DNA from: Planctomycetota bacterium
Lineage (GTDB): Bacteria; Planctomycetota; GCA-002687715; DRQF01
Reading direction: 5' to 3'
Length of the DNA: 15,304 nt
Assembly: GCA_036479435.1 (NCBI GenBank)
Contig: JAZGFI010000146.1
Span: 1 to 15,304, forward strand
Position 1 is the first letter of the stretch; the number at the start of each line of letters is the position of its first letter. Below are positions 2,103 to 15,304 of this stretch, piece by piece. The translations under genes were made by a program, and so were the position numbers. Below the pieces are notes generated by a model. It saw nothing but the letters and a program-made list of their open reading frames with translations. It was not told where the DNA came from and did not search any database.

Positions 2103-2707
2103 TGGCCACGCGCCGCCTTTTCACCTTGTTGTTACTGGCTTTGACCCTTGGACTCGGCGCATGCGAAACTTTCGCTCCGCAACCGGAACCCGACGAAACT
2201 TTTGACGCCGAGTTAGTGGAACTTGCCGACTGGATGAGCGGAAGTTTTGAGACCGCCAAGCCACCGGCTGCGAGTGGAATGAACTACCGCGGTTTCCAGC
2301 TTGAGACCGCAGAGATATGGACCGACCGAAAAGATGGTCTTTGGTTGTACTCCGAGCAGGCTGCCGCGGGCTCTCCCGACCGGCCTTTTCGGCAGCGCGT
2401 CTATCATCTGAGCCGCGGTGGGGATGGCGCGATCATCTCTGAGATCTATTCCTTGCCCAACGGCGGAAGAGGCCATCTCGGGGCCTACAAAAATCCCAGC
2501 CTCTTCAGCAACATCGACCCTTCGAAACTGCAGTCGCAGGAAAAAGGTCACATGGTTTTGCGGCGGATGGGACCACGAACTTTCCTCGGCTCGACCCAAG
2601 GCAATACGGGAATGAACTCTCAGCTAACGGTCACCCCGATCGAAATGCAATGGAGTGGCTCAGGGTCCGAAGATGCGACGCAGGTGTTCTTGAAGAAAGG
2701 GATCTAG
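2099..2707 (+). CDS. CpcT/CpeT (chromophore lyase)-like beta-barrel lipoprotein
   Basis: Signal peptide II with lipobox (LLLLALTLGLGA-C); WMSGSF, IWTDRKDGLWLYSEQA and RPFRQRVYHL resemble the CpcT/CpeT family. ATGA overlap with the upstream stop; GGGAGG RBS. Confidence 0.75.
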   Translation: MMATRRLFTLLLLALTLGLGACETFAPQPEPDETFDAELVELADWMSGSFETAKPPAASGMNYRGFQLETAEIWTDRKDGLWLYSEQAAAGSPDRPFRQRVYHLSRGGDGAIISEIYSLPNGGRGHLGAYKNPSLFSNIDPSKLQSQEKGHMVLRRMGPRTFLGSTQGNTGMNSQLTVTPIEMQWSGSGSEDATQVFLKKGI

Positions 2708-2723
2708 GGCCTCCCAAGGCCAT

Positions 2724-3074
2724 TTAGGATCGCGGTTGTTTGCGCAGCTCGGCGACAAAGATCTCACGGTCAGTGGGGCCGCGGTACTGGTCGCCGGGGC
2801 CCCAGACGCGGTGAGCGAACTCGTGGCAAGACCTACAGAGTTTGACGTAGCGGCTGCGGACCGCGCGGTCTTTGCCGCCATCCTCAGCAATTGGCACAAG
2901 GTGGTGCCGCGTCATCAGTTCGCTTTGGTGACAAATGGGGCATTCGCTGGACGAGCGCACCTTGCTGGAAAAGGTACACCAGCTGTCGCCGAATCGAATC
3001 CAGACTTCGCGCAGCAGCTCATCGTCGCTGACTTTCGCCATTTCGAAACGGTTAATAGAGACGTCTTTCGTCAC
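2724..3074 (-). CDS. Small HNH-endonuclease-like zinc-binding protein
   Basis: CPIC...RHHLVP...LCRSCHEFAH has the CxxC..HH..P..LCxxCH..H pattern of small HNH proteins. GTG start with AGGAAG upstream; converges on the CpcT-like gene. Confidence 0.7.
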   Translation of the reverse strand: MTKDVSINRFEMAKVSDDELLREVWIRFGDSWCTFSSKVRSSSECPICHQSELMTRHHLVPIAEDGGKDRAVRSRYVKLCRSCHEFAHRVWGPGDQYRGPTDREIFVAELRKQPRS

Positions 3075-3095
3075 GGCTCACTTCCTATGAATAAT

Positions 3096-3131
3096 GCAGC
3101 CCGCGGTTTCGCTGAAGAAGCCGCGGGCTGC
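3096..3131 (-). terminator. GC-rich stem-loop downstream of the HMA gene (candidate intrinsic terminator)
   Basis: GCAGCCCGCGG (3096-3106) and CCGCGGGCTGC (3121-3131) form a perfect 11-bp inverted repeat 25 nt after the stop at 3157. On the minus strand it is followed by AUUAUUCAU, a weak U tract. Confidence 0.55.
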
Positions 3132-3156
3132 CGTAACTAATCTTGATGCGAGCCGA

Positions 3157-3543
3157 TCAGGGCTTGGCCGCGGTGATGCCCTTAACCTCATAACGGGTCT
3201 CGGAGAGGGCTGCGACGCAATCATCGCCACTGATCTTGCCGCCTTTGCCGACGGTGACTCTCGCCGTGCCCGCGGCGACGTCAATTTCGACTGATTCAAC
3301 TTTGTCGATTTTTTGGGTCAAGACACTCTTGACCTTGCTTCCGCACATCTTCATTCAGCTCATGCCCTCGACCTGGACCGTGTAGGTCCCCGGTCCGTGG
3401 ACTTCTTGCATGTCGGCAGAAGCGTTGGTTTCGACTTCTGCGTTCTTGGCGGAGACGTCTTCGTAGCTTGCGTAGCAAGAGATCGTAAGCAGGGCCAAGG
3501 CGATGGTGGTCACCGTCAGCCGGAACAGATTCAATGTTTTCAT
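3157..3543 (-). CDS. HMA (MerP/CopZ-like) domain lipoprotein, probable selenoprotein (Sec63, in-frame TGA at 3355-3357), 128 aa
   Basis: Track ORFs 3355-3543 and 3157-3354 are in the same frame and abut. Joined they read ...TYTVQVEGMS-U-MKMCGSKVKSVLTQKIDKVESVEIDVAAGTARVTV...ALSETRYEV, a complete HMA-like pattern. GGAG RBS 6 nt before ATG 3543; signal peptide ending LLTIS-C; SECIS-like hairpin downstream of the TGA. Confidence 0.85.
3316..3334 (-). promoter_or_regulatory. Bacterial SECIS-like hairpin
   Basis: mRNA reads UGA-AUGAAGAUGUGCGGAAGCAA-GGUCAAGA-GUG-UCUUGACC: a perfect 8-bp stem, a loop starting with G, and 28 nt between the UGA and the loop. This fits the bacterial SECIS model (G in the first two loop positions, loop about 16-37 nt from the UGA). 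Confidence 0.78.
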
Positions 3544-3579
3544 GGCGTTCTCCAGTTTGGTGTCCAGATCGCACCACCG

Positions 3580-3612
3580 AGTCTTGACGATAGTGCTCCT
3601 ACAATCAAGGCT
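3580..3612. promoter_or_regulatory. Imperfect dyad / candidate overlapping divergent promoters between the HMA and sulfatase genes
   Basis: AGTCTTGACGATAG-TGCTC-CTACAATCAAGGCT, with 10 of 14 arm positions complementary. It gives TTGACG-N17-AAGGCT on + and TTGATT-N17-AAGACT on -. Confidence 0.35.
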
Positions 3613-3639
3613 TAGGCCAGGGTTACCTGGAGAACCGCG

Positions 3640-5139
3640 ATGTCTTTGTTTGAGCTTGTTGACCGTTACTTCCTCATTATCTGCGGCTTAGGTGTGTTCG
3701 GCGCGAGTCTACCCGCCCAAGACCGGGTCGCGCCGCCGCGAATCGCCGCAAAACCCAATGTCGTCTTTATCATGGCGGACGATCTCGGCTACGGCGAGCT
3801 GGGTTGCTACGGCCAGACCAAGATCAAGACTCCTCACATCGATCGCTTGGCGAAGCAGGGGATGCGCTTTTTGGATCACTACAGTGGGGCTCCGGTTTGT
3901 GCCCCGGCTCGTTGTGTACTGATGACGGGTAAGAAGCTTTCCCACGCCGCGGTGCGGGGCAATCGCGAGGTGCAGCCCGAAGGTCAGTGGCCGATCGCGG
4001 ACAAAGAAGTCACCGTGGCGGAGATTCTAAAGCAGCGCGGCTACCGAACGGGCTGCGTTGGCAAGTGGGGCCTCGGGGCACCGGGCTCGGTCGGCGCTCC
4101 CAATGCGCAAGGCTTTGATTTTTTCTACGGATTCAACTGTCAACGCCAAGCCCACAACTTGTACCCGACCCACTTGTGGCTGAATGATCAAAAGCACCCG
4201 CTGAACAATCCCTCTTTTCGTGCGCACCAAAAACTCAAGGTGGCGCCCGATGACTACGCAAGGTTTCGAGGTAAAGAGTATGCGCCACACTTGATGATCA
4301 ACGCTGCACTCGCGTTTTTGCGGCGCGAGCAGGATCGCCCCTTCTTTTTGTTTTTGCCTTTCGTCGAACCCCACTTGGCCATGCAGCCGCCTCAGGTCTG
4401 GGTTGACCTTTACCCCGAAGAATGGGATCAAAAACCCTATCTCGGGCAGCGGGGTTACTTGCCACACCCGCGGCCGCGCGCGGGTTACGCCGCGATGATC
4501 AGTCACTTGGACGATCACGTCGGCCGTGTCGTCCGCCTGATTGACGCGTTAGGCCTTGGCGAGAACACCCTCATCATCTTCACCAGCGACAACGGTCCGA
4601 CCCACGACGTCGGTGGCGTCCAAACTGAGTTTTTCAACAGCGCCGGCCCGCTTCGCGGCCGCAAAGGATCTGTCTTTGAAGGCGGAATTCGCGTCCCCAC
4701 GGTGGCTCGTTGGACGGGGAAAATAAAGCCCGGCTCGACGACCAAGATCATCTCGGCCTTTGAGGATTGGATGCCGACTCTCGCCGAGCTGGCCCAAGCC
4801 AAAACTCCCGTCAGGGCAGCCAATTCTGGCCAAGGCATCAGTCTGTTGCCCACAATTTTGGGCCGCCCCGGCCAGCAATCGCGCGAGTATCTGTCTTGGG
4901 AGTTTTACGGCTACGGCGGACAACAAGCGGTTCGCATGGGACCATGGAAAGCCGTCCGGCAGCGCTTGCACCGCGGCAACCAAAAAATCATGCTCTTCAA
5001 TCTCAAAGACGACCTCGGCGAAAAAACCGACGTCGCCGTCGAGCACCCCAAGATCGTTCGCCGGATGGACTGGATCATGCGCAACGACCGCCGCGCCAAC
5101 CCCGCCTTCCCCGTCGAGATGCTTGACCAAGAAAAGTAG
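3640..5139 (+). CDS. Formylglycine-dependent (Cys-type, S1 family) arylsulfatase, probably exported
   Basis: KPNVVFIMADDLGYGELG, TPHIDRLA, CAPARCVLMTG (CxPxR, Cys87), GYRTGCVGKWGLG, FTSDNGP, LRGRKGSVFEGGIRVP, LFNLKDDLGE. Hydrophobic N-terminus; GGAG RBS. Confidence 0.95.
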   Translation: MSLFELVDRYFLIICGLGVFGASLPAQDRVAPPRIAAKPNVVFIMADDLGYGELGCYGQTKIKTPHIDRLAKQGMRFLDHYSGAPVCAPARCVLMTGKKLSHAAVRGNREVQPEGQWPIADKEVTVAEILKQRGYRTGCVGKWGLGAPGSVGAPNAQGFDFFYGFNCQRQAHNLYPTHLWLNDQKHPLNNPSFRAHQKLKVAPDDYARFRGKEYAPHLMINAALAFLRREQDRPFFLFLPFVEPHLAMQPPQVWVDLYPEEWDQKPYLGQRGYLPHPRPRAGYAAMISHLDDHVGRVVRLIDALGLGENTLIIFTSDNGPTHDVGGVQTEFFNSAGPLRGRKGSVFEGGIRVPTVARWTGKIKPGSTTKIISAFEDWMPTLAELAQAKTPVRAANSGQGISLLPTILGRPGQQSREYLSWEFYGYGGQQAVRMGPWKAVRQRLHRGNQKIMLFNLKDDLGEKTDVAVEHPKIVRRMDWIMRNDRRANPAFPVEMLDQEK

Positions 5140-6052: not shown

Positions 6053-7627
6053 TTGCCCGCCGAGAACAATGCGATGACGACTGAGCAAGCTATCCGGGTT
6101 GGAATCCTCCCTTTGCGAAACCAAGTTCCCGTGCCCGGAGCGGGCTTGGCGGTCAGCTTTGACCGTGCCCGATCGCTTGAGGTTTTGAAGGCCTTGGCGA
6201 CCGAAGACGACCCCCAAGTGGCGCTCTTCGTGCAGCACGACCAGACCGTGGATCAGCCAGGTCCCGAAGATGTCTATCCCCATGGGGTCTTGGCCCGCGC
6301 TAGCGAGATTGCGGCGGCGGGAACGACTTTCGCTGGATTGAGTCGCGTGCGGCTCGAATCTTGGGCCGACGATGGTGCGGCTTTAATGGGGGAGGTGGTG
6401 GTGCTGGGCGATGACGGCGAGGCTGCCGGGACCGAGCTTGTGGCGGAGTTGCGCAAGACGGCGCGCCAGCTCGTGGAGGCGATGCCGGAGCTACCGCGGG
6501 ACCTTCTTGCGGTTATTGACATGATCCCGCCGCGCCGCCTCGCTTACGAAGTGGGCGCCTACATGAGCGCCAGCGTCGAGAACAAAATTGGTTTGTTGCT
6601 GGCCGAGTCGGAGAGACAATGCGTCGAAACAGGTCTCAGCTTGTTGAAGCAACAGCTTCGTTTGGAACAGCGACTCCAGACCTTGGCCGGGGCTGAGATG
6701 AAGGACTGTTGGTGCTTGCAAAAAGGCGCCGAAGCAGAGATCGACAGGCGCGAGAAAAGTGGCGAGTTGTCCGCCGAGGAGGCCGAGGACGTCCGTAGTT
6801 TTCGTCGCCGCGGTTACGTCGTATTTGAGAAGTTAGTCGAGGACGAACTCATCGACGCACTGCTGTCGGACTTGCGTTCGATCGCGGACCGGCCCGGCGA
6901 ATTTCTTACGACCGACCATCGCCGCGGTCGCGGATTTCGGCTTTCCGGTGCGGATTTTGACGCCTACGAAAGCGTGTTTGACCTTTATGTGAACTTCGAA
7001 AGCTCGCGGCGAGTGTGTTTTCACCCGCGCATTCTCCGTTTCTTAGAGATCATCTTTGACGCCCGCCCGCTGGCGTTTCAGCAGTTGCTTTTCCAGCGCA
7101 GCAACCTCCATCCCTTACACCAAGATACCGCCTACGTTTGTGTGCAGGAACCTTTGCTTTTGGCGGCGACTTGGGTCGCCTTGGAAGACGTGGTGCCCGG
7201 CCGTGGAGAGTTGACTTACTTCGAAGGCAGCCACCGCATTCCCCATCACATCTTTGAAAGTGGGGGCAAGCGATACCACTCTGAACGGGATGATGAAGGT
7301 ACGGCGCGCGAACACATCGTGCGGCAATGCGAAGAGATGGCTTGTGAGCAAAAGGACTTTTTCGCCAAAAAAGGCGATGTCTTTTTGTGGGCGGCGGACC
7401 TCGTACATGGCAGCCGGTCTCGCACGCGGCCCGAACATGAAACGCGGCTTTCTTGTGTGACGCACTACTGCCCCGAGACCACGGAACCGGTTTGGTTTTG
7501 GTCTCAACCCAAGCACAAAACCATTGAGCGCTACGGCGACCGCGCCTTGATCGCGAGCTCACAGTACTTGTTGCCGCGGTCCCCCGATCGAGATCGGCCG
7601 CATACCCGCGCGCCTTTGCCGTCTTAA
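6053..7627 (+). CDS. Fusion: Lon protease N-terminal substrate-binding domain + phytanoyl-CoA dioxygenase (PhyH)-family Fe(II)/2OG oxygenase
   Basis: N-terminal ILPLRNQVPVPG...RARSLEVL...QPGPEDVYPHGVLA...GLSRVRL is Lon N-domain-like. C-terminal FRRRGYVV, LHQD, TWVALEDV..GRGELTYFEGSHR, KKGDVFLW..LVHGS, RLS is PhyH-like. The start may be ATG 6074. Confidence 0.82.
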   Translation: MPAENNAMTTEQAIRVGILPLRNQVPVPGAGLAVSFDRARSLEVLKALATEDDPQVALFVQHDQTVDQPGPEDVYPHGVLARASEIAAAGTTFAGLSRVRLESWADDGAALMGEVVVLGDDGEAAGTELVAELRKTARQLVEAMPELPRDLLAVIDMIPPRRLAYEVGAYMSASVENKIGLLLAESERQCVETGLSLLKQQLRLEQRLQTLAGAEMKDCWCLQKGAEAEIDRREKSGELSAEEAEDVRSFRRRGYVVFEKLVEDELIDALLSDLRSIADRPGEFLTTDHRRGRGFRLSGADFDAYESVFDLYVNFESSRRVCFHPRILRFLEIIFDARPLAFQQLLFQRSNLHPLHQDTAYVCVQEPLLLAATWVALEDVVPGRGELTYFEGSHRIPHHIFESGGKRYHSERDDEGTAREHIVRQCEEMACEQKDFFAKKGDVFLWAADLVHGSRSRTRPEHETRLSCVTHYCPETTEPVWFWSQPKHKTIERYGDRALIASSQYLLPRSPDRDRPHTRAPLPS

Positions 7628-7869
7628 TCGGACCAACATGGTCCGGTACTGTGTTGCTCGACAAGTTCTCATTAAGAGGCTATTCGACTTCATTTTGAGA
7701 CGGAGTTCTTCCGAAATTCTCAAATGCAATTGTCTTCCGTGAGCCGCCCTTGGTTGCTCGAAGTGCGGAAGTTTGAGGGTTGAACCCTCGACTTCTCGCC
7801 TCAGCATCGCGGCCCCCGAGGATTCCCCAGCTTTTCAGGCCGTTGGGGTTTTAGGTGAGGACCAAAAAA

Positions 7870-8289
7870 ATGAGATTCGGCGATTACTTACTCAGCCGCG
7901 GAACGGTAACCCTCAAAGATCTTGTCTCCGCTCTCAACGCGCAGCGCCTTGAGCAGGAGCCGCTCGGAAAGATCGCGCTGGCCCAAGGCAAGCTCAACAT
8001 CAAACAGGTTTTTTTGGTGTTGAACGCCCAAGCCAGCGACCGAGAGATCGCTCGTTCAGATACTCAGGGATACCTTTTTGGGGACATCTGTATCGAGTTT
8101 GGGTTCTTCAACGACCAGGAACTGATTGATCTCCTTCGACTCCAGCGCATGTCGCGCCCTCAGATTGGCGAGATTCTGGTAAACAAGGGAGCGCTATCGA
8201 GGGAGCAGCTCCAAGAGTTTCTTCGGGAATACGCGGTCTACAAAAAGGCGCGCAAGGGAGCGGACATGGCTCTGGGGCGCTCTGGCTAG
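7870..8289 (+). CDS. Stand-alone protein of four MshEN-like (putative c-di-GMP-binding) repeats
   Basis: Four 24-aa units: RFGDYLLSRGTVTLKDLVSALNAQ, PLGKIALAQGKLNIKQVFLVLNAQ, LFGDICIEFGFFNDQELIDLLRLQ, QIGEILVNKGALSREQLQEFLREY, versus the MshEN consensus RLGxxLLxxGLLxxxxLxxxLxxQ. GAGG lies 9 nt before ATG 7870 (alternative start GTG 7855). Confidence 0.75.
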   Translation: MRFGDYLLSRGTVTLKDLVSALNAQRLEQEPLGKIALAQGKLNIKQVFLVLNAQASDREIARSDTQGYLFGDICIEFGFFNDQELIDLLRLQRMSRPQIGEILVNKGALSREQLQEFLREYAVYKKARKGADMALGRSG

Positions 8290-8536
8290 CCGCCGCCGTG
8301 GGAAGCTGCCGACGTCCTATTATTCACCTAAACTTCTTCCTTTAGCTGCTAAACGGCACCTCCACGAACTAGATACGTATCGAGTCACTTCAGCTCCCCG
8401 CGCCCCGCCTTCCCATCGCCAGAACTGATCCAACAAGACGTGCTCGTATTGTCGACTCGGTCGGACTCAATCTGGTTTTCAAGGCACTCCTCGGCCGAGT
8501 CTGAGCCCTAACTTCAGTCGTTGACAATTAATCTCG

Positions 8537-10126
8537 ATGATGAATGAGTATGCAGGGTCAGTTTGGGAGCTAGTCAGAACCATGACCGACAATTTTGTTA
8601 CCCGCAGCTTCGATCAAGCCGCCGCGGCCCTTGCCTTGCGGCGCACAAAAAGCTCCAATCCGGTGCTGAGACAACGCGCTCAGAAGCATCTATCGGAGCG
8701 CCTCGGCCGTCTGAAGGGGCTTCCCCTAAAACTGGGGCAGATGATGGGAATGGCAGCCGCGAAAGACGGGGAGACCTCGCAAGATATTGCCATCAACGCC
8801 AAGCCAATCCCCCTAGACAAGATCCTCGGCGCCTTTGAAGGCTCGTCAACATTACGAAGTGATGGCGTTTTTGAGTCCGTCGACGTCGAGGGCTTCGCCG
8901 GCTCTGTAGGCCAAGTTCATCGCGCAAGGCTGAAGGGTGGAGAGGATCAGGTTGCCCTAAAAGTTTTGTACCCGGGCATACGTTCTGCGATCCGAAGTGA
9001 CCTGAGAACTTTGGGGTGGCTAGCTCCAGCGATCAAGCGCCGGGCTCGGGATTTCGATTTGGACCAACTGAAGGAAGAGGTCGTCGCGCGCCTCGAACAA
9101 GAGTGCGACCTTCGCCAGGAAGCCAAACGACAATCCGAATACGCAGAAGCCTTTGCGACGGACCCAGATGTCGTCATTCCGCGCATCCATCGGAAACTCT
9201 GCTCTAAGGATGTCCTGGTTTCCGACTGGGAAGATGGCGAGGAGTTGGCGGCAATTCAGAGCTGGAACTCCGCCGACCGAAAAGCCGCAGCCCGAGTCCT
9301 GCTGCGCCATTTTCTGAATGCGGTCTTCAGGAGGGGCTTGGTCCACGGAGACCTGCACCCGGGCAACTTCCGTTTTCGCCGTGACGGCCATGGCGGCGCG
9401 TCGAGTCGAGTGCGGCTGGTCCTCTACGACTTCGGGGCGGCTATTCGACTGGACGAGACGACTCGCCGTGCCTTTTTAGGACTGATCGACGACACGATGC
9501 AGCGGCGGGGCGATCCGAGCGTTCGTTTTCGCGAGTTGGGCTTTCGCGAGGATCTCATGACGCCGATTGAAGATCGCTTGCCCGCACTATGCAGCGTTCT
9601 GTTTGAGCCCTTCGCGGTCGACGGTGAATTTGACCTGGCCACTTGGAACCGCAAAGACCGGGTGGATGAGATTCTCGGCGATTTGCGTTGGAACCTTCGA
9701 ATGGCCGGGCCCCCGAAACTCCTGCCGCTAATGCGCGCCTATCAAGGCCTAATTTGCGCCCTCGCCGCCCTCGGAGAGCCCGTGAATTGGAAGCAAGCGA
9801 TCACCAGAATCTTGGACGCCGAGGGTGACCTGAGCCCAAGAGTCGCTTGTCGGGAAACGGGGGAGGGATTTTCAGCCTTGGCGCAGTCGCTGCGGGTTCA
9901 GGTCTCGGATGGCGGGAAACTCGTCGCCGCCCTCACCTTTCCGGCGGCCGTTATCGAACGCTTAGAAACCCTAATAGACCCCAGTCTCCGTTCTAAAATT
10001 GAGGCCCAAGGAATCGTCCTTCAAGACATCGTAAGTCGAGCTAGACGGGCGGGATATGCTCCGATAGAATTGCTGCAATTCGACGATGTGGCCAATTCCC
10101 GCCACGTTCGACTGTGGCTTGAGTGA
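8537..10126 (+). CDS. ABC1/AarF/UbiB-family atypical kinase with extra C-terminal domain
   Basis: LKGLPLKLGQ (KxGQ), FAGSVGQVHRA, VALKVLYPGI, ECDLRQEA, HGDLHPGNF, LYDFGA. The start could be ATG 8582. Confidence 0.92.
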   Translation: MMNEYAGSVWELVRTMTDNFVTRSFDQAAAALALRRTKSSNPVLRQRAQKHLSERLGRLKGLPLKLGQMMGMAAAKDGETSQDIAINAKPIPLDKILGAFEGSSTLRSDGVFESVDVEGFAGSVGQVHRARLKGGEDQVALKVLYPGIRSAIRSDLRTLGWLAPAIKRRARDFDLDQLKEEVVARLEQECDLRQEAKRQSEYAEAFATDPDVVIPRIHRKLCSKDVLVSDWEDGEELAAIQSWNSADRKAAARVLLRHFLNAVFRRGLVHGDLHPGNFRFRRDGHGGASSRVRLVLYDFGAAIRLDETTRRAFLGLIDDTMQRRGDPSVRFRELGFREDLMTPIEDRLPALCSVLFEPFAVDGEFDLATWNRKDRVDEILGDLRWNLRMAGPPKLLPLMRAYQGLICALAALGEPVNWKQAITRILDAEGDLSPRVACRETGEGFSALAQSLRVQVSDGGKLVAALTFPAAVIERLETLIDPSLRSKIEAQGIVLQDIVSRARRAGYAPIELLQFDDVANSRHVRLWLE

Positions 10127-10347
10127 AGACAGGCAAGCGCAAACGGTGAAATAACTCAAGCGAGCCGACGTCATCTGTCGAAGCACCTGAGGGATAAGGG
10201 ATGTTCGAGAAGATCTCATCTTTCATCTAGGTAGTTTGCTCCTTGGCAAAAAGGGGTCTGGCTACTCGTGGGTATTGGCCATCGCATCCACGCCTAGATT
10301 TCTTTGCATATTGACTTAGAACGTAAATCGGGCGGAGAACGACTTTC

Positions 10348-12948
10348 ATGGCAAGCATCCTTGAGCAGGTGCAAAACCTCTCGGCCGAGATCATCGCGGC
10401 TGATCCCGGAGACGCTAGCGATCTGCAGAATCTCGTTTCGGCCGTCGCGTCTAACGAAACGGAGATCTCGGAGAACTACCCTCGCCTTTTGCCCTACATC
10501 GACGAACTAAAAAAATCCCTGGGTCAGCTTGAGTCCTGCGCGGAAACCGAATCGGCGCAGTACCTCGAGCAGCTAGGCGCGATCGTCTCGGTCTTGGCGC
10601 GTGAAGTTGAAGAGGAAGAGCAATCGGAAGATCTATCGGGCTCGCCAACAGAAAACACTGACGAGTTCGAATTCGATGATACCGCGCTCTTGTTCGAGTT
10701 CTTGGCGGAACAAGATGAGAACCTGGAACGCCTCGAGGCTTTCGCCTTGGAACTCGAAAAGGGCGTCGACGACACCACGCTCTCGGAGCTAAAGGGAGTC
10801 CTTCACACCTTGAAGGGCGAGCTTGGCGTGCTGGGTTTAGCCGATGTCGCGGGACATTGCCACGAACTTGAAGACCAGCTGACCAGGCCGACGGAAGATG
10901 TTCACTCCGAGGTGATTCTGCGCGCGATCGACTGGGTACGCCTGCGCTTCAAAGCGATTGAACAAGGTGGCGACAATCCCGCCCCGTTTATCTGGGAATC
11001 CCAAGACGAAATTCAAACGACGGCCGAATCCAAGGCTGAGGTCGCGGAGGCAAGGCCGAAGGTGGAAGCCTTTGAGGTGCCGCCCTGTTTTACTGAAGGT
11101 GCGGATCTCGTCGGCGATCAAGAGGTCGCGACTGAGTTTGTTTTCGAGGCGCGCGAGTACCTTGAAGACGTCGATGTCCAACTTCTCACCCTTGAGAAAG
11201 ACCCCGCCGACGGCGAAGCCATCAACACGATCTTTCGGGCCTTTCACACCATCAAGGGCGTTGCGGCGTTCCTCGAGCTGAAGTGCCTACAGCAGCTCGC
11301 GCACGTCGCGGAGACGATGCTGGATTCCGTTCGCAACGGCACGATTGTGATGATCGGCGAACCTTTGGCGGTGACTTTCGACGTCAACGATGCCTTGAGG
11401 CAACACTTCGACACTCTCGAAGAAGTGATTTTGGCAGGCGGACCACTGCAACCTGCTCCTAACCTCCCTGAGCTGGTCTGCCGGATTACTAGCGTCATAC
11501 GTGGGGAGCCAGAGCTCGAAGTTGCCGGGACGATCGCGAGTTCTGGAACGGCTAGCTCGAACCTCATCGCGGAGGCACCTATCCAACTAGACATCGTTGA
11601 GTCAAGCGGAAGCATAGTTGAAGCCGCCACTCCGAAAGTTTCGCCCGAACCGGCGAAGGCAGCCTCTAAGGCCACTGTGGAACCGAGTTCCAAAGAGAAG
11701 GCCGCCAAGCCGACCGGAAGCCTGCGCGAGACCATCAAGGTCGATGCCCAACGTCTGGACCAACTCGTGGACATGATTGGCGAACTCGTCATCTCCGAAG
11801 CGATGGTGAGTCAGTCCGACGAACTCGATCTGACCGACCGTCCGCGGCTGACGAGTCTCTTTGGGCATATGGACAAGATCACTCGCGAACTCCAAGAGCT
11901 CGCGATGTCGTTGCGCATGGTCCCCATTCGTTCGACTTTTCGGCGGATGGCTCGCTTGGCGCGCGATGTCGCCCAACGCCTCGACAAGCCGATCAACTTC
12001 GTCACCCTCGGCGAAAACACCGATCTGGACAAGACGGTTGTCGACTCGATCGGAGATCCGCTCGTTCACCTCATTAGGAACGCGGTGGATCACGGGATTG
12101 AAAACGACAGCGAGTCGCGAATCTCGGCTGGCAAGCCTCCCGAAGGCAGGATTGAACTCCGCGCTTTCCACCGCGGGGGCAACATCCTTATCGAAATTGA
12201 AGACGACGGCGGCGGACTTGACGCCGAGGTGATCCTGGCGAAGGCTCGTGAACGCAATGTCGTTGGACCGGACGAGGTCCTCAGCGAAGACGAGATCTAC
12301 AACCTGATTTTCGCCCCCGGATTTTCAACCGCCAGCACCGTTACTGAGGTATCGGGGCGTGGCGTTGGGCTCGACGTCGTCAAGCGACATATCGAGACTC
12401 TGCGGGGATCAACGAAGGTTACCTCTACACCGGGAAAAGGAAGCGTCTTCAGTATCCGCCTCCCCCTAACGCTCGCGATCATCGACGGCATGGTGGTACG
12501 TATGGGCACGGAGAGATTCATCCTTCCCACGGCCTCGATTGTGCGAATGATTCGCCCTCATGAAAGCACTCAAACCAAGCTCTTCGACCGCAACACTGTG
12601 CTGAGTGTTGGCGACGATCTCGTGCCGCTCGTTCGTCTCGATCGAACCTTCGGTCTCCCTGAAGTAGCGGCTCAAGCCGAGAGGTCGTCGGCCGTGATCG
12701 TGGAGCACGAAGGCCGACAATGTGCCTTCATGGTTGATGAACTACTTGGCCAGCAGCAAGTCGTCATCAAGCCATTGGGCCCCAGTTTGGTCGGCCTCGC
12801 AGGCCTCAGCGGCGGAGCCATCATGCCGGACGGGCGTGTGGGCTTGATCCTCGACGTGGCGGGCCTAAGCAAGATATCCGGAGAATCATCGGAAACACCC
12901 TCGGCTGACAATCGATCAGCGCTGGGTCGAGATAGGGAATCAGCATGA
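10348..12948 (+). CDS. cheA: Chemotaxis histidine kinase CheA with two Hpt domains
   Basis: Hpt motifs VLHTLKG and AFHTIKG; dimerisation IKVDAQRLDQLVDMIGELVI; HATPase HLIRNAVDHGIE, EDDGGG, FAPGFST, VSGRGVGLDVV; C-terminal CheW-like domain RLPLTLAI...VDELLGQQQVVIK...LILDV. GGAG RBS. Confidence 0.97.
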   Translation: MASILEQVQNLSAEIIAADPGDASDLQNLVSAVASNETEISENYPRLLPYIDELKKSLGQLESCAETESAQYLEQLGAIVSVLAREVEEEEQSEDLSGSPTENTDEFEFDDTALLFEFLAEQDENLERLEAFALELEKGVDDTTLSELKGVLHTLKGELGVLGLADVAGHCHELEDQLTRPTEDVHSEVILRAIDWVRLRFKAIEQGGDNPAPFIWESQDEIQTTAESKAEVAEARPKVEAFEVPPCFTEGADLVGDQEVATEFVFEAREYLEDVDVQLLTLEKDPADGEAINTIFRAFHTIKGVAAFLELKCLQQLAHVAETMLDSVRNGTIVMIGEPLAVTFDVNDALRQHFDTLEEVILAGGPLQPAPNLPELVCRITSVIRGEPELEVAGTIASSGTASSNLIAEAPIQLDIVESSGSIVEAATPKVSPEPAKAASKATVEPSSKEKAAKPTGSLRETIKVDAQRLDQLVDMIGELVISEAMVSQSDELDLTDRPRLTSLFGHMDKITRELQELAMSLRMVPIRSTFRRMARLARDVAQRLDKPINFVTLGENTDLDKTVVDSIGDPLVHLIRNAVDHGIENDSESRISAGKPPEGRIELRAFHRGGNILIEIEDDGGGLDAEVILAKARERNVVGPDEVLSEDEIYNLIFAPGFSTASTVTEVSGRGVGLDVVKRHIETLRGSTKVTSTPGKGSVFSIRLPLTLAIIDGMVVRMGTERFILPTASIVRMIRPHESTQTKLFDRNTVLSVGDDLVPLVRLDRTFGLPEVAAQAERSSAVIVEHEGRQCAFMVDELLGQQQVVIKPLGPSLVGLAGLSGGAIMPDGRVGLILDVAGLSKISGESSETPSADNRSALGRDRESA

Positions 12949-13466
12949 CGCAGTTAGTCGACAAGATCAGCAAAGAGCAAGAAGAGGTCTCGGGCAAGTA
13001 CCTGACTTTTCAGCTCGGAGAAGAGCACTACGGCCTCCCGATTCTTCAAGTTCGCGAAATCATCGGACTGATGGATATCACCAAGGTCCCTCGCTCACCT
13101 GACTACATTCGTGGGGTCATCAATCTGCGGGGCCGGATCATTCCAGTTCTCAATCTCAGAGATCGCTTCGGGATGACGAGCGTCGAGGACACGAGCATGA
13201 CCTGCATCATCGTCGTGGACGTCGAGGCCCAGGGTGCGACCACCTTGATGGGCATTCTTGTCGACAGCGTACGGGAAGTCCTCGACATCATCCCGGAAGA
13301 CATCGAGCCGGCGCCCAGCTTCGGCGCCGGCGCCAACGGCAATGCCATCCGAGCGATGGCCAAAGGTAAAGAACGCGTGACGATCCTCTTGAGCACCGAG
13401 CAGGTTGTCAACTCCGAATCCCTCGCCGCGACCTCCGAGTCCGGCGAAGAAGAAAAGAAAAACTAA
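12945..13466 (+). CDS. cheW: Chemotaxis coupling protein CheW
   Basis: KYLTFQLGEEHYGLPILQVREII, TKVPRSPDYIRGVINLRGRIIPV, GILVDSVREV. ATGA overlap with the cheA stop. Confidence 0.97.
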   Translation: MTQLVDKISKEQEEVSGKYLTFQLGEEHYGLPILQVREIIGLMDITKVPRSPDYIRGVINLRGRIIPVLNLRDRFGMTSVEDTSMTCIIVVDVEAQGATTLMGILVDSVREVLDIIPEDIEPAPSFGAGANGNAIRAMAKGKERVTILLSTEQVVNSESLAATSESGEEEKKN

Positions 13467-13477
13467 GGGGCCCCCTG

Positions 13478-15304
13478 ATGACAACGACAACGACGACCAA
13501 AAAGACCAAAAGCAAGGGCCCCGCGGCCAAGACCAAAGCCAAGGCCGCAGCCAAAACGCCGCGTTCCAGCGCAGCTAAAAAGCTCTGGGAACTCGAAGAG
13601 AGAATGCGGGCGATCGGCAGCACTCAAGCGGTGATTGAATTCGAAATGGACGGCACCATCATTGCCGCAAACCAGAACTTTCTGGCTACGACGGGCTACG
13701 ATCTCAGCGAGATCGAAGGCCGGCACCACAGCATGTTCGTCGACGAAGACCACAAAAGTTCCGACGACTACAAGGCATTCTGGGAGAGACTAAATCGCGG
13801 CGAAAGCGAAAGCGGCGACTACACACGTTACGGAAAAGGGCGTCGCCAAATCACCCTCAGGGCGTCCTACAACGCCATTGTCGACCGTGACGGCAAACCT
13901 TTCAAGGTTGTGAAGTATGCAACAGACGTCAGCGCTGCCGCCACCGAAATGGCGGCAGCAGCGCTGTTGCGGAGTGCAGTGGAGGGATCTAGTACCGCTT
14001 CGATGCAGGTTGATCTCAACTTAAACATTACCGGTGTCAACCCCGCTACCGTTCGCTTGGTGCGTAGCAATATCAGTGCTTTCGAAGGCGCATTTCCAGA
14101 AGTTGATTTCACCAACTTGATCGGATCTTGTGTCGACGTTTTTCACGAGAATCCGGCACACCAACGCAAGCTGTTGTCTGATCCCAAAAATCTTCCACAC
14201 CAAGCTGAGATCAAGGTTGGCGATCTGTACTTCGCGCTCAATATCTCCGCGATGCTGGATTCCCAAGGTCAGCACGTCGGAGCGAACCTCGAGTGGCAAG
14301 ATGTGACGGAACAACGGAGTCAAGAGGCCGCGGCCGCGAGGCTTCGAAGTGCCTTTGAGGGCTCGGGTACCGCGTCGATGCAGATCGACCGTGACCTTGT
14401 CATTCAAGGTGCGAACCCCGCGACCATCAAGCTGGTGACTAATAACCTTGACGTTTTTCGTAAGGCCTTCCCAGCAGTCAACTTCGATGATCTTATTGGA
14501 GTTTGTGTTGATGTCTTCCACAAGGACCCACAGCATCAACGAAAAATTCTCGGTGACCCTCGAAACCTCCCTTATGTCGCGGAGATCGAAGTGCAAGACC
14601 TTCGCTTCGCCCTCAACGTCTCAGCCATGCTCGACGCGAATGGCGACCACGTTGGCGCTAATCTCGAATGGCAGGATGTCACTGAAGCCCGCGAGAGCGA
14701 ACGGCAGCAAACCCTTGCCAACGCAGCCATCGCGGATCTGGCGCGCGCCGCGCAGGAAGGTGATCTTGCCAAGAGAGCGACGACGGATGGCCTCGAAGGC
14801 GACATTCACCAGCTCGTCAAGGGTGTTAACGGAATGCTCGACGCAGTTGTTGCACCCATAAACGAAGTATCAGCCGTTCTGAAGAGCGTCGCGAATCAGG
14901 ATCTTCGGCCGCGCGTCATGGGCGACTACAAGGGCGATCACGAAGAGCTCAAGAACAACCTCAACATGGCGGTCCAAAAGCTAGAGGATGCGCTGTCTCA
15001 GGTTAGCGAGGCGACAGGCCAAGTCGCCGCGGCAAGTGCTCAGATAGGCGAAGGCAGTCAGAAACTCGCGGAAGGTGCGAGTACGCAAGCGGCGTCGATT
15101 GAGGAGATTTCCGCGTCACTTGAAGAAATGTCTTCGATGACCGGGCAGAACGCTGATAACTCGTCCCATGCCAAGATCCTCGCCGACACTGCCAGCGAAT
15201 CGGCAGATAAGGGCAACGATCAGATGGTTCAGCTGAAGGAAGCGATCGACGCCATCAAGGCTTCGAGCGACGAGACCTCGAAGATCGTCAAGACGATCGA
15301 TGAA
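13478..15304 (+). CDS. Soluble methyl-accepting chemotaxis protein, PAS-PAS-PAS-HAMP-MA (Aer2-like), 3'-truncated by the window
   Basis: Not in the ORF track (no stop in the window); translated by hand from ATG 13478: MTTTTTTKKTKSK...AVIEFEMDGTIIAANQNFL...GRHHSMFVD...FWERLNRG...VVKYATDV; two VDVFHxxPxHQ...EWQDVT domains; GDLAKRA/QDLRPRV HAMP-like segments; QAASIEEISASLEEM...IVKTIDE signalling domain. No TM helix seen. Confidence 0.93.
   Translation, partial: MTTTTTTKKTKSKGPAAKTKAKAAAKTPRSSAAKKLWELEERMRAIGSTQAVIEFEMDGTIIAANQNFLATTGYDLSEIEGRHHSMFVDEDHKSSDDYKAFWERLNRGESESGDYTRYGKGRRQITLRASYNAIVDRDGKPFKVVKYATDVSAAATEMAAAALLRSAVEGSSTASMQVDLNLNITGVNPATVRLVRSNISAFEGAFPEVDFTNLIGSCVDVFHENPAHQRKLLSDPKNLPHQAEIKVGDLYFALNISAMLDSQGQHVGANLEWQDVTEQRSQEAAAARLRSAFEGSGTASMQIDRDLVIQGANPATIKLVTNNLDVFRKAFPAVNFDDLIGVCVDVFHKDPQHQRKILGDPRNLPYVAEIEVQDLRFALNVSAMLDANGDHVGANLEWQDVTEARESERQQTLANAAIADLARAAQEGDLAKRATTDGLEGDIHQLVKGVNGMLDAVVAPINEVSAVLKSVANQDLRPRVMGDYKGDHEELKNNLNMAVQKLEDALSQVSEATGQVAAASAQIGEGSQKLAEGASTQAASIEEISASLEEMSSMTGQNADNSSHAKILADTASESADKGNDQMVQLKEAIDAIKASSDETSKIVKTIDE
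13965..14690 (+). repeat. Tandem internal duplication of an Aer2-type PAS domain (375-nt / 125-aa period; boundaries approximate)
   Basis: TTCGCGCTCAATATCTCCGCGATGCTGGAT...GAGTGGCAAGATGT at 14231 versus TTCGCCCTCAACGTCTCAGCCATGCTCGAC...GAATGGCAGGATGT at 14606. Both encode LRSAxEGSxTASMQ...FALNxSAMLD..G.HVGANLEWQDVT. Confidence 0.9.

Follow-up and report, generated by a model that had tools for sequence, protein, structure and literature searches.

Gene structure and reading frame

The window, the whole stretch of 15,304 nucleotides that was analysed, comes from the genome of a Planctomycetota bacterium (5.47 Mb, 92% complete). On its minus strand, running from 3543 to 3157, 62 codons are followed by a TGA triplet (3357-3355) and then by 65 more codons in the same frame, and translation confirms the proposal of the first-pass annotation that two ORFs split only by the TGA give one protein of 128 amino acids when read through. 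With the TGA read as selenocysteine (Sec, U), this protein contains the motif GMS-U63-MKM-C67 and has the architecture of an export signal, a linker and a single HMA-fold domain (Table 1). Alignment places TGA 63 at the first cysteine of the GMxC motif, where it had been said to lie, and neither half is a complete HMA domain: against the Pfam HMA model (PF00403) the N-terminal half has no match and the C-terminal half scores 19.0 bits (model positions 12-42), while the read-through protein scores 24.4 bits (E 3.8e-05, model positions 1-42), just under the cut-off of 24.8. The splitting that was expected of standard gene callers has occurred, the 65-residue C-terminal half being on record as a separate protein (P0262, 100% identical). 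The two small called genes are almost certainly one selenoprotein gene for an exported protein shaped like a metal chaperone; we hold it nearly beyond doubt that this selenoprotein gene is real, and to judge from the machinery, the SECIS hairpin and the conservation described below, Sec is very highly likely to be inserted at UGA 63. A third cysteine, Cys109 (3217-3219, minus strand), lies in helix 2 and is common to an orthologue in genome G003, of the same family, and a few other members.

Table 1. Features of the gene, its surroundings and related loci (positions are those of the window unless a contig or locus is named).
Feature	Position	Strand	Basis or remark
Full gene, 128 aa, TGA 63 read as selenocysteine	3157..3543	-	HMA match spans the TGA
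GGAG, Shine-Dalgarno-like, 6 nt ahead of ATG	3550..3553	-	direct sequence reading
Predicted export signal M1-C23: basic n-region, hydrophobic core, possible lipobox L-T-I-S-C	3475..3543	-	
Variable linker, residues 24-51	3391..3474	-	pLDDT 50-59 in first 20 modelled residues
HMA domain, ferredoxin-like beta-alpha-beta-beta-alpha-beta, residues 52-126	3166..3390	-	AlphaFold2, Foldseek, profile
In-frame TGA, predicted Sec63, first ligand position of GMx-U-xxx-C	3355..3357	-	alignment, relatives, runs
Cys67, second ligand position	3343..3345	-	invariant in alignments A2 and A3 (U read as C)
SECIS hairpin GGUCAAGA-GUG-UCUUGACC	3316..3334	-	folding; within the bSECIS constraints of PMC13188914
Strong hairpin after stop codon, 11-bp outer stem	3096..3131	-	z -3.8, 0/200 shuffles
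Small HNH-like gene downstream	2724..3074	-	Pfam HNH 20.2 bits, under cut-off 21.4
Paralogue: three domains, three Sec, two without second Cys	C124:11104-11919	-	
Paralogue: three domains, Sec in first only, repeats 2-3 ligand-less	C96:6433-7215	-	
Paralogue: one domain behind hydrophobic anchor	C109:1240-1572	+	
MerR-family regulator, exported protein of 285-315 aa, two to four HMA genes	L114:6264-10084, L115:5439-7740		
MerT-like/Sec-HMA fusion, adjoining ECF sigma factor	L113:4912-5586	-	under NCBIfam cut-offs
Lipoprotein HMA(UxxU)-thioredoxin fusion	L109:635-1447	-	
Second HMA-thioredoxin fusion, further in-frame TGA in thioredoxin motif	L111:513 onward		

Selenocysteine machinery and SECIS hairpin

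All four genes for which a search had been proposed (selA, selB, selC and selD) are present in the genome: selA, selD and tRNA-Sec lie together on contig C117 and selB is on C237, each scoring over its curated cut-off (selA 526 bits against 267.9; selD 372 bits; tRNA-Sec 67 bits). The selD gene has an in-frame TGA of its own.

As set out in the available text of PMC13188914, the bSECIS model has a loop of 3-9 nt with G in its first two positions, a stem of 4-16 bp, a distance of 16-37 nt from the UGA and an MFE of -7.5 or lower. The window hairpin has an 8-bp stem and a 3-nt loop that begins with G; the stem starts 21 nt and the loop 28 nt after the UGA, the folding energy is about -13 kcal/mol for a hairpin region of 39-58 nt, and z ranges from -3.66 to -1.98 in five folded intervals around it. 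In the same zone, stems of at least 8 bp follow 0.9% of 4000 random TGA triplets of the genome, none of the 4000 has such a stem with GUG in the loop, and none of 200 synonymous recodings matches the window stem.

The positional test, confined to loci from unbiased genome searches, found stems of at least 6 bp after 34 of 51 Sec domains and 4 of 21 Cys domains; loci found by a CGTG pattern were excluded from the hairpin statistics because the pattern itself had demanded CGTG. The folding energy of the whole region does not separate Sec from Cys domains (means -12.2 and -12.3). In a covariation count on 23 hand-picked UxxxC/UxxxU rows, from which the structure was itself derived and among which kin are not independent, 79.5% of positions of the family hairpin are paired, which beats 500 of 500 shuffles and six slid registers (best of seven); the window hairpin is left out of this count because it is displaced by 3 nt relative to the family consensus.

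The second hairpin, after the stop codon, is a possible terminator without a clear U-tract, and it was not reported by a terminator scan. An Rfam search over positions 2700-3800 of the window returned two chance-level matches only.

Sequencing reads

Four public runs were compared over positions 3000-3700 of the window, of which X3, X6 and X7 cover codon 63 and X10 does not. The TGA is unchanged in all three covering runs, with neither of the cysteine codons (TGC, TGT) that were to be looked for. Run X3 is identical to the window and may be the source of the assembly; X7, from the same sample as that possible source, is identical over 318 nt; X6 represents a strain with 9 differences over 184 positions, which are confined to codons 33-55 and spare both the TGA and the hairpin; five of its six altered codons are non-synonymous. 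The runs containing the region are invertebrate or unspecified metagenomes, and no RNA dataset is among the runs listed as containing it.

These reads bear on the reading that a Cys codon has recently turned into TGA, as a pseudogene or through sequencing error, to which we give very little probability. The closest orthologue found, in G003, does carry Cys, and the searches of other species turned up no close TGA-bearing orthologue with a domain identity of more than about 42%. However, the TGA is present even in a strain with nine substitutions in 184 nt, the SECIS-type hairpin of 8 bp is absent from the Cys orthologue (4 bp), TGA recurs at the same position across the order, and the frame is intact on both sides; the pseudogene reading is largely refuted. 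The first-pass annotation had named three findings that would tell against a selenoprotein (no Sec machinery, a Cys codon in the reads, Cys in all close relatives); what was found is the machinery, TGA in the reads and TGA-bearing relatives, which support the selenoprotein reading.

HMA domain and export signal

HMA proteins such as MerP, CopZ and Atx1 hold one soft metal ion in near-linear coordination. The AlphaFold2 model of the window protein (40-row alignment, mean pLDDT 80.5) has the order strand-helix-strand-strand-helix-strand, and its best Foldseek matches are copper chaperones, MerP, ATP7B domains and Atx1 (CopZ 6ff2: TM 0.85 by target, rmsd 1.7), in support of the HMA fold that had been assigned from the letters. 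The family profile matches MerP and CopZ structures at 1e-14 to 1e-16 (MerP 3e-16), and the GMx motif and loop-5 Tyr are those of metal-binding HMA domains.

The ligand spacing is GMS-U-xxx-C, not the canonical GMxCxxC. The idea that UxxxC is special to this gene did not hold, since that spacing is the norm in the family (23 of 51 unbiased Sec domains) and Cys-only GMxCxxxC proteins occur elsewhere. GMxCxxxC or its Trp-rendered form is found in 47 of the best 150 profile matches, 46 of them with Cys, and 12 of the GMxCxxxC proteins among these 150 have the P-type ATPase motif DKTGT; the spacing occurs in only one of 120 short homologues. Because it is also found in P-type ATPase repeats, it leaves room for an HMA-like function of the window protein.

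The claim of an exported lipoprotein stood as to export, which is likely from the N-terminal sequence, and became less certain as to the lipid anchor at Cys23, which is plausible and to which we would give somewhat better than even chances. The possible lipobox L-T-I-S-C23 has Thr at -3 and fits the relaxed pattern, not the strict [LVI][ASTVI][GAS]C, both being the patterns that we take to be in general use. C23 aligns with the cysteine of a canonical VVAC lipobox in the G003 orthologue, and Lgt and LspA are present in the genome. The alternative to a lipobox is a signal peptidase I cut after C-Y-A. The linker behind the signal is probably disordered, to judge from the model.

Relatives across the order and phylum

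A 12-row profile matches 22 of the 23 genomes of the order. The comparison of TGA with Cys at position 63 that had been called for in homologues showed U at this place of the motif in 16 of these genomes; six genomes have only Cys matches and one has none. Across 401 genomes of the phylum, 109 match at E <= 1e-11 and 44 have a TGA inside the match, the position of the TGA within the motif being confirmed for matches with retrieved loci and kin among the 44 genomes being non-independent. The family is present in about a tenth of the sampled Planctomycetota genomes. The selA gene is found in all 44 genomes with TGA matches and in 44 of the 65 other matching genomes (288 of 401 overall). A DNA pattern of TGA plus CGTG loop found 32 loci in GTDB genomes, of which 28 are true HMA loci with the TGA at the motif position (one a duplicate) and four are chance matches; the pattern loci include five Candidatus Binatia records and one deltaproteobacterium.

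The motifs of all 74 Sec domains are UxxxC (46), UxxU (9), lone U (8), UxxxU (6) and UxxC (5), and those of the 51 unbiased Sec domains are UxxxC (23), UxxU (9), lone U (8), UxxxU (6) and UxxC (5). Among 57 Sec-bearing proteins, 54 have a hydrophobic N-terminus by a rule of our own and 15 a Cys that resembles a lipobox; two or three domains were scored in 15 of the proteins. The window gene is a member of a Planctomycetota-centred family of exported Sec-HMA proteins with one to three domains. Its own genome holds four Sec-HMA paralogues in all (Table 1), one of which, on C96, is resembled by a Cys form, P0084. Because gene callers split such genes (P0262, P0157, P0119) or read TGA as Trp, at each site in P0007, the family is missing from catalogues.

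Other searches returned little. A single-protein homologue search gave none at E <= 0.001 among 14 candidates, and a search of 50%-representative proteins was dominated by multi-HMA ATPase-like proteins. No relative was found in viral contigs. None of 563 pattern matches was confirmed in a metagenome scan for close orthologues, and a metagenome scan with a DNA pattern gave 19 loci, two of which were HMA domains, both with Cys.

The cysteine orthologue of G003

In a FastTree phylogeny, the window domain is sister to that of a Cys lipoprotein of G003 (SH 0.943; 35% identity). This orthologue has GMS-C-SR-C and a VVAC lipobox and lacks the hairpin, and it lies in a genome that has selA and other Sec-HMA genes. 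An OxyR-like gene is upstream of it, and an HNH-like gene follows both it and the window gene, the two HNH-like products being 60% identical. The HNH-like protein has two CxxC pairs and was found, with this query, in all nine genomes of the family and in none of the 14 other genomes of the order. As a partner of the HMA protein it was rejected: it is present in all eight other genomes of the family and adjoins an HMA gene only in G003, and is therefore a marker of synteny. Because the deep nodes of a tree of 70 residues are weak, no direction of change between Sec and Cys was drawn. Since the nearest relative carries Cys, a direct comparison of selenium with sulfur is possible.

Genomic context and metal genes

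A Pfam search over the window ORFs found no metal gene, the neighbours being a sulfatase and the HNH-like gene, which confirms the reported absence of metal genes nearby; the stand-alone context claimed for the gene therefore holds locally, but not for the genome, where it is one of four Sec-HMA genes. Neighbourhoods of 55 loci are conserved only among close kin, among the matches listed.

Elsewhere in the window (all on the plus strand), positions 1-2707 hold in a row a molybdopterin oxidoreductase fragment, a nitroreductase-family gene, which we take to resemble iodotyrosine dehalogenase, and a CpeT/CpcT-family lipoprotein. An unusual 524-residue fusion of Lon substrate-binding and PhyH-type dioxygenase domains occupies 6053-7627, and 7855-15304 holds an ABC1-type kinase followed by CheA-, CheW- and MCP-like chemotaxis genes, the chemotaxis names being read from translations.

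No match to a P1B-type ATPase, nor to any other P-type ATPase, was found in the window genome, at 92% completeness, with TIGR01525, PF13246 and a DKTGT scan. P1B-type ATPases occur in all eight other genomes of the family and in 20 of the 23 genomes of the order; the absence may reflect incompleteness or a real loss in a host-associated lineage. No MerA scored over the cut-off in the window genome either, which leaves the protein with no evident canonical HMA partner; the genome does have heavy-metal RND pumps, one TIGR00914 match being over the cut-off. That Sec-HMA proteins replace P1B-ATPases was considered and rejected, as the 20 genomes with the ATPase include most Sec-HMA carriers.

In two genomes of another family, a MerR-family regulator (best matches MerR/ZntR, under cut-offs) precedes clusters of Sec-HMA and Cys-HMA genes. 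The HMA genes of these loci, L114 and L115, have UxxU, CxxC or no ligands, and the accompanying exported protein is unannotated, without an NCBIfam match, and possibly an outer-membrane barrel. Both loci are candidates for a metal-responsive selenoprotein operon.

Comparison with known proteins

The window protein resembles CopZ (PDB 6ff2, 2qif), MerP (TIGR02052; 1osd, 1afi) and Atx1 in fold, in the GMx-ligand loop and in domain size, and MerP also in having an export signal. In contrast to all three, its first ligand position holds Sec in place of Cys, its two ligands are separated by three residues, it has a linker and a possible lipid anchor, and it belongs to no mer or cop operon; the merT, merA and merR genes of a mer operon are absent around it. 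Its scores are 17.5 with the MerP model (cut-off 92.55) and at most 23.3 with CopZ models (cut-offs 85-95).

Sec at a ligand position of a stand-alone HMA-like protein is found in the UxxU metal-binding (seleno)protein NF041115, labelled a putative mercuric reductase in Table 1 of PMC13188914 and in the table of PMC9312934. Similarity is weak: NF041115 spans 74 positions with UxxU, whereas the window protein has a single Sec in a UxxxC motif and carries an export signal at its N-terminus, and it scores 17.3 against a cut-off of 95 (the highest score among 16 relatives, 71.1, is a sum over three domains). The MerT/CopZ fusion-like heavy metal transport selenoprotein NF045683 shares a Sec-containing CopZ-like domain and, like the fusion of L113, joins MerT-like and HMA parts; the window protein, by contrast, lacks the MerT domain and scores 24.4 against a cut-off of 375, and fused L113 reaches only 66.2. 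A P1B ATPase selenoprotein with UxxC (ABB15669.1; Table 1 of PMC13188914) likewise has Sec first in the ligand motif, at a site that we would place within its HMA domain, but this is a cytoplasmic domain of a pump, whereas the window protein is exported and stand-alone. SaoB, SaoC and SaoX, in the available text of bioRxiv 10.1101/2022.07.06.499078, are likewise exported or lipid-anchored selenoproteins proposed to bind metals; they differ in having ABC binding-protein or unrelated folds, CU motifs and a conserved nine-gene operon, none of which is found at the window gene. The window protein is therefore MerP/CopZ-like by fold and not a member of MerP, CopZ, NF041115 or NF045683.

Against NCBIfam (June 2026), neither the window protein nor any of 16 relatives reaches a cut-off. 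Table 1 of PMC13188914 has 119 families, including NF041115, the UxxC heavy-metal ATPase, a MerT-type protein and exported Sao proteins; none of the 119 is an HMA protein that is both exported and stand-alone, and none has a UxxxC motif. PMC9312934, in its available part, lists the same older entries, and the accessible portions of PMC1976440, PMC12013277, PMC13326102 and bioRxiv 10.1101/2022.07.06.499078 describe no such family. A GOS 'MerP' selenoprotein (PMC2398784, as far as its accessible text goes) was rejected as prior art, being a 33-residue fragment without a GMxCxxC-like motif. The exported Sec-HMA family was not found described in the literature covered, which extended neither to Haft and Tolstoy 2025 nor to the family list of BSepDB. 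It is uncatalogued but widespread, and it is not categorically new, since HMA-type and metal-transport proteins with Sec have been catalogued before. That such proteins had appeared in selenoproteome surveys was rightly said in the first-pass annotation (NF041115 and NF045683 are catalogued); the novelty that it suggested for the combination was overstated, since Sec-HMA domains are catalogued, CxxxC occurs in HMA repeats of P-type ATPases, and the lipobox is non-canonical.

Proposed function

A selenolate stays ionised, is a tight ligand for soft metals and is hard to oxidise irreversibly. The following mechanism is proposed. The hairpin downstream of UGA 63 would recruit SelB with Sec-tRNA and Sec would be inserted; the protein would be exported and lipid-anchored at Cys23 on a flexible linker; and its single HMA domain would expose Sec63 and Cys67, which lie on the loop and the first helix, and would most likely capture Cu(I), Hg(II) or Ag(I) on the extracytoplasmic side, either buffering the metal or passing it to envelope transporters. 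At this position the selenolate would stay ionised, would hold the soft metal tightly and would escape irreversible oxidation in an oxidising compartment. Taken whole, an exported selenoprotein in which Se63 and S67 bind one soft metal outside the cytoplasm is the reading we consider probable, if by no means secure. The metal part of it is preferred because of HMA chemistry, the MerR-family regulators of two genomes and the MerT-like fusion of a third. The heavy-metal RND pumps of the window genome also fit it; a window with no metal gene, neighbourhoods that vary beyond close kin and a Pfam HMA score slightly below the cut-off count against it.

The main rival, which we judge unlikely, is a redox selenoprotein in which U63 and C67 would pass through a periplasmic selenenyl-sulfide cycle (thiol-disulfide exchange, or scavenging of peroxide or hypochlorite) with the HMA fold as scaffold only. 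Most catalogued selenoproteins are redox proteins, according to the available text of PMC13188914. The OxyR-like gene that precedes the G003 orthologue and the HMA-thioredoxin fusions of two relatives (L109 and L111) point to redox, and neither a P1B-ATPase nor MerA was found as a partner in the window genome. The eight of 51 Sec domains without a second Cys or Sec are, moreover, a poor fit to a two-ligand site within one domain. On the other hand, metal-binding HMA domains share the protein's fold, GMx motif and loop-5 Tyr, some relatives have MerR-family or MerT-like genes as neighbours or fusion parts, and the OxyR-like neighbour is found in one genome and is absent from the window. An improbable further reading is a selenium store or carrier, or a dead-end Hg-Se sink, formed by small exported proteins with one to three (up to four) Sec. 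It would account for the tandem forms of two or three domains with a UGA and hairpin for each repeat (more than one domain in 15 of 57 proteins), for the four paralogues of the window genome and for Sec being kept where the second Cys was lost; yet there are also Cys forms, one of them the syntenic orthologue, whose genome has selA, one Sec per 128 residues is a poor store, and some repeats (the second and third on C96) have lost both ligands.

A wider proposal is speculative and rather unlikely as it stands: Planctomycetota and some other lineages (Candidatus Binatia) would have expanded an uncatalogued extracytoplasmic, selenium-based layer of soft-metal handling, in which the four genes of this genome would operate with no P1B-ATPase or MerA. 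Such a layer would be built from exported proteins with between one and three HMA domains and UxxxC, UxxC, UxxU, UxxxU or lone-U sites, lipid-anchored or soluble. Their selenolates would trap Hg or Cu outside the cytoplasm, and the proteins would either serve as a sink or supply RND pumps; the Sec-only copies would bind through selenolates from several domains.

To our knowledge, nearly all characterised selenoproteins are redox enzymes. The family bears on whether Sec can be favoured for metal binding alone and what advantage it then has over Cys, a question made directly testable by the small, soluble, natural Sec/Cys pair of the window gene and G003, on a well-understood fold, together with the UxxU, UxxxU and lone-U variants. 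The catalogued metal-transport selenoproteins are predictions only, in the available text of PMC13188914.

Other TGA-bearing frames

Two further kinds of locus were noted. At L098 and L099, a ligand-less HMA gene is preceded in frame by a signal peptide and a 'LUAGU'-like segment with two TGA codons, which suggests Sec residues outside the usual loop. In the window genome, thioredoxin-like frames with TGA occur at C96:7596-8672 (plus strand), where the frame is divergent from the Sec-HMA paralogue of that contig, and on C141, C271, C97, C46 and C262; they carry WUPGC, WUAGC, TUPNC, KUPPC, CU or CVU motifs followed by hairpins, also with CGUG loops, and are probable selenoproteins.
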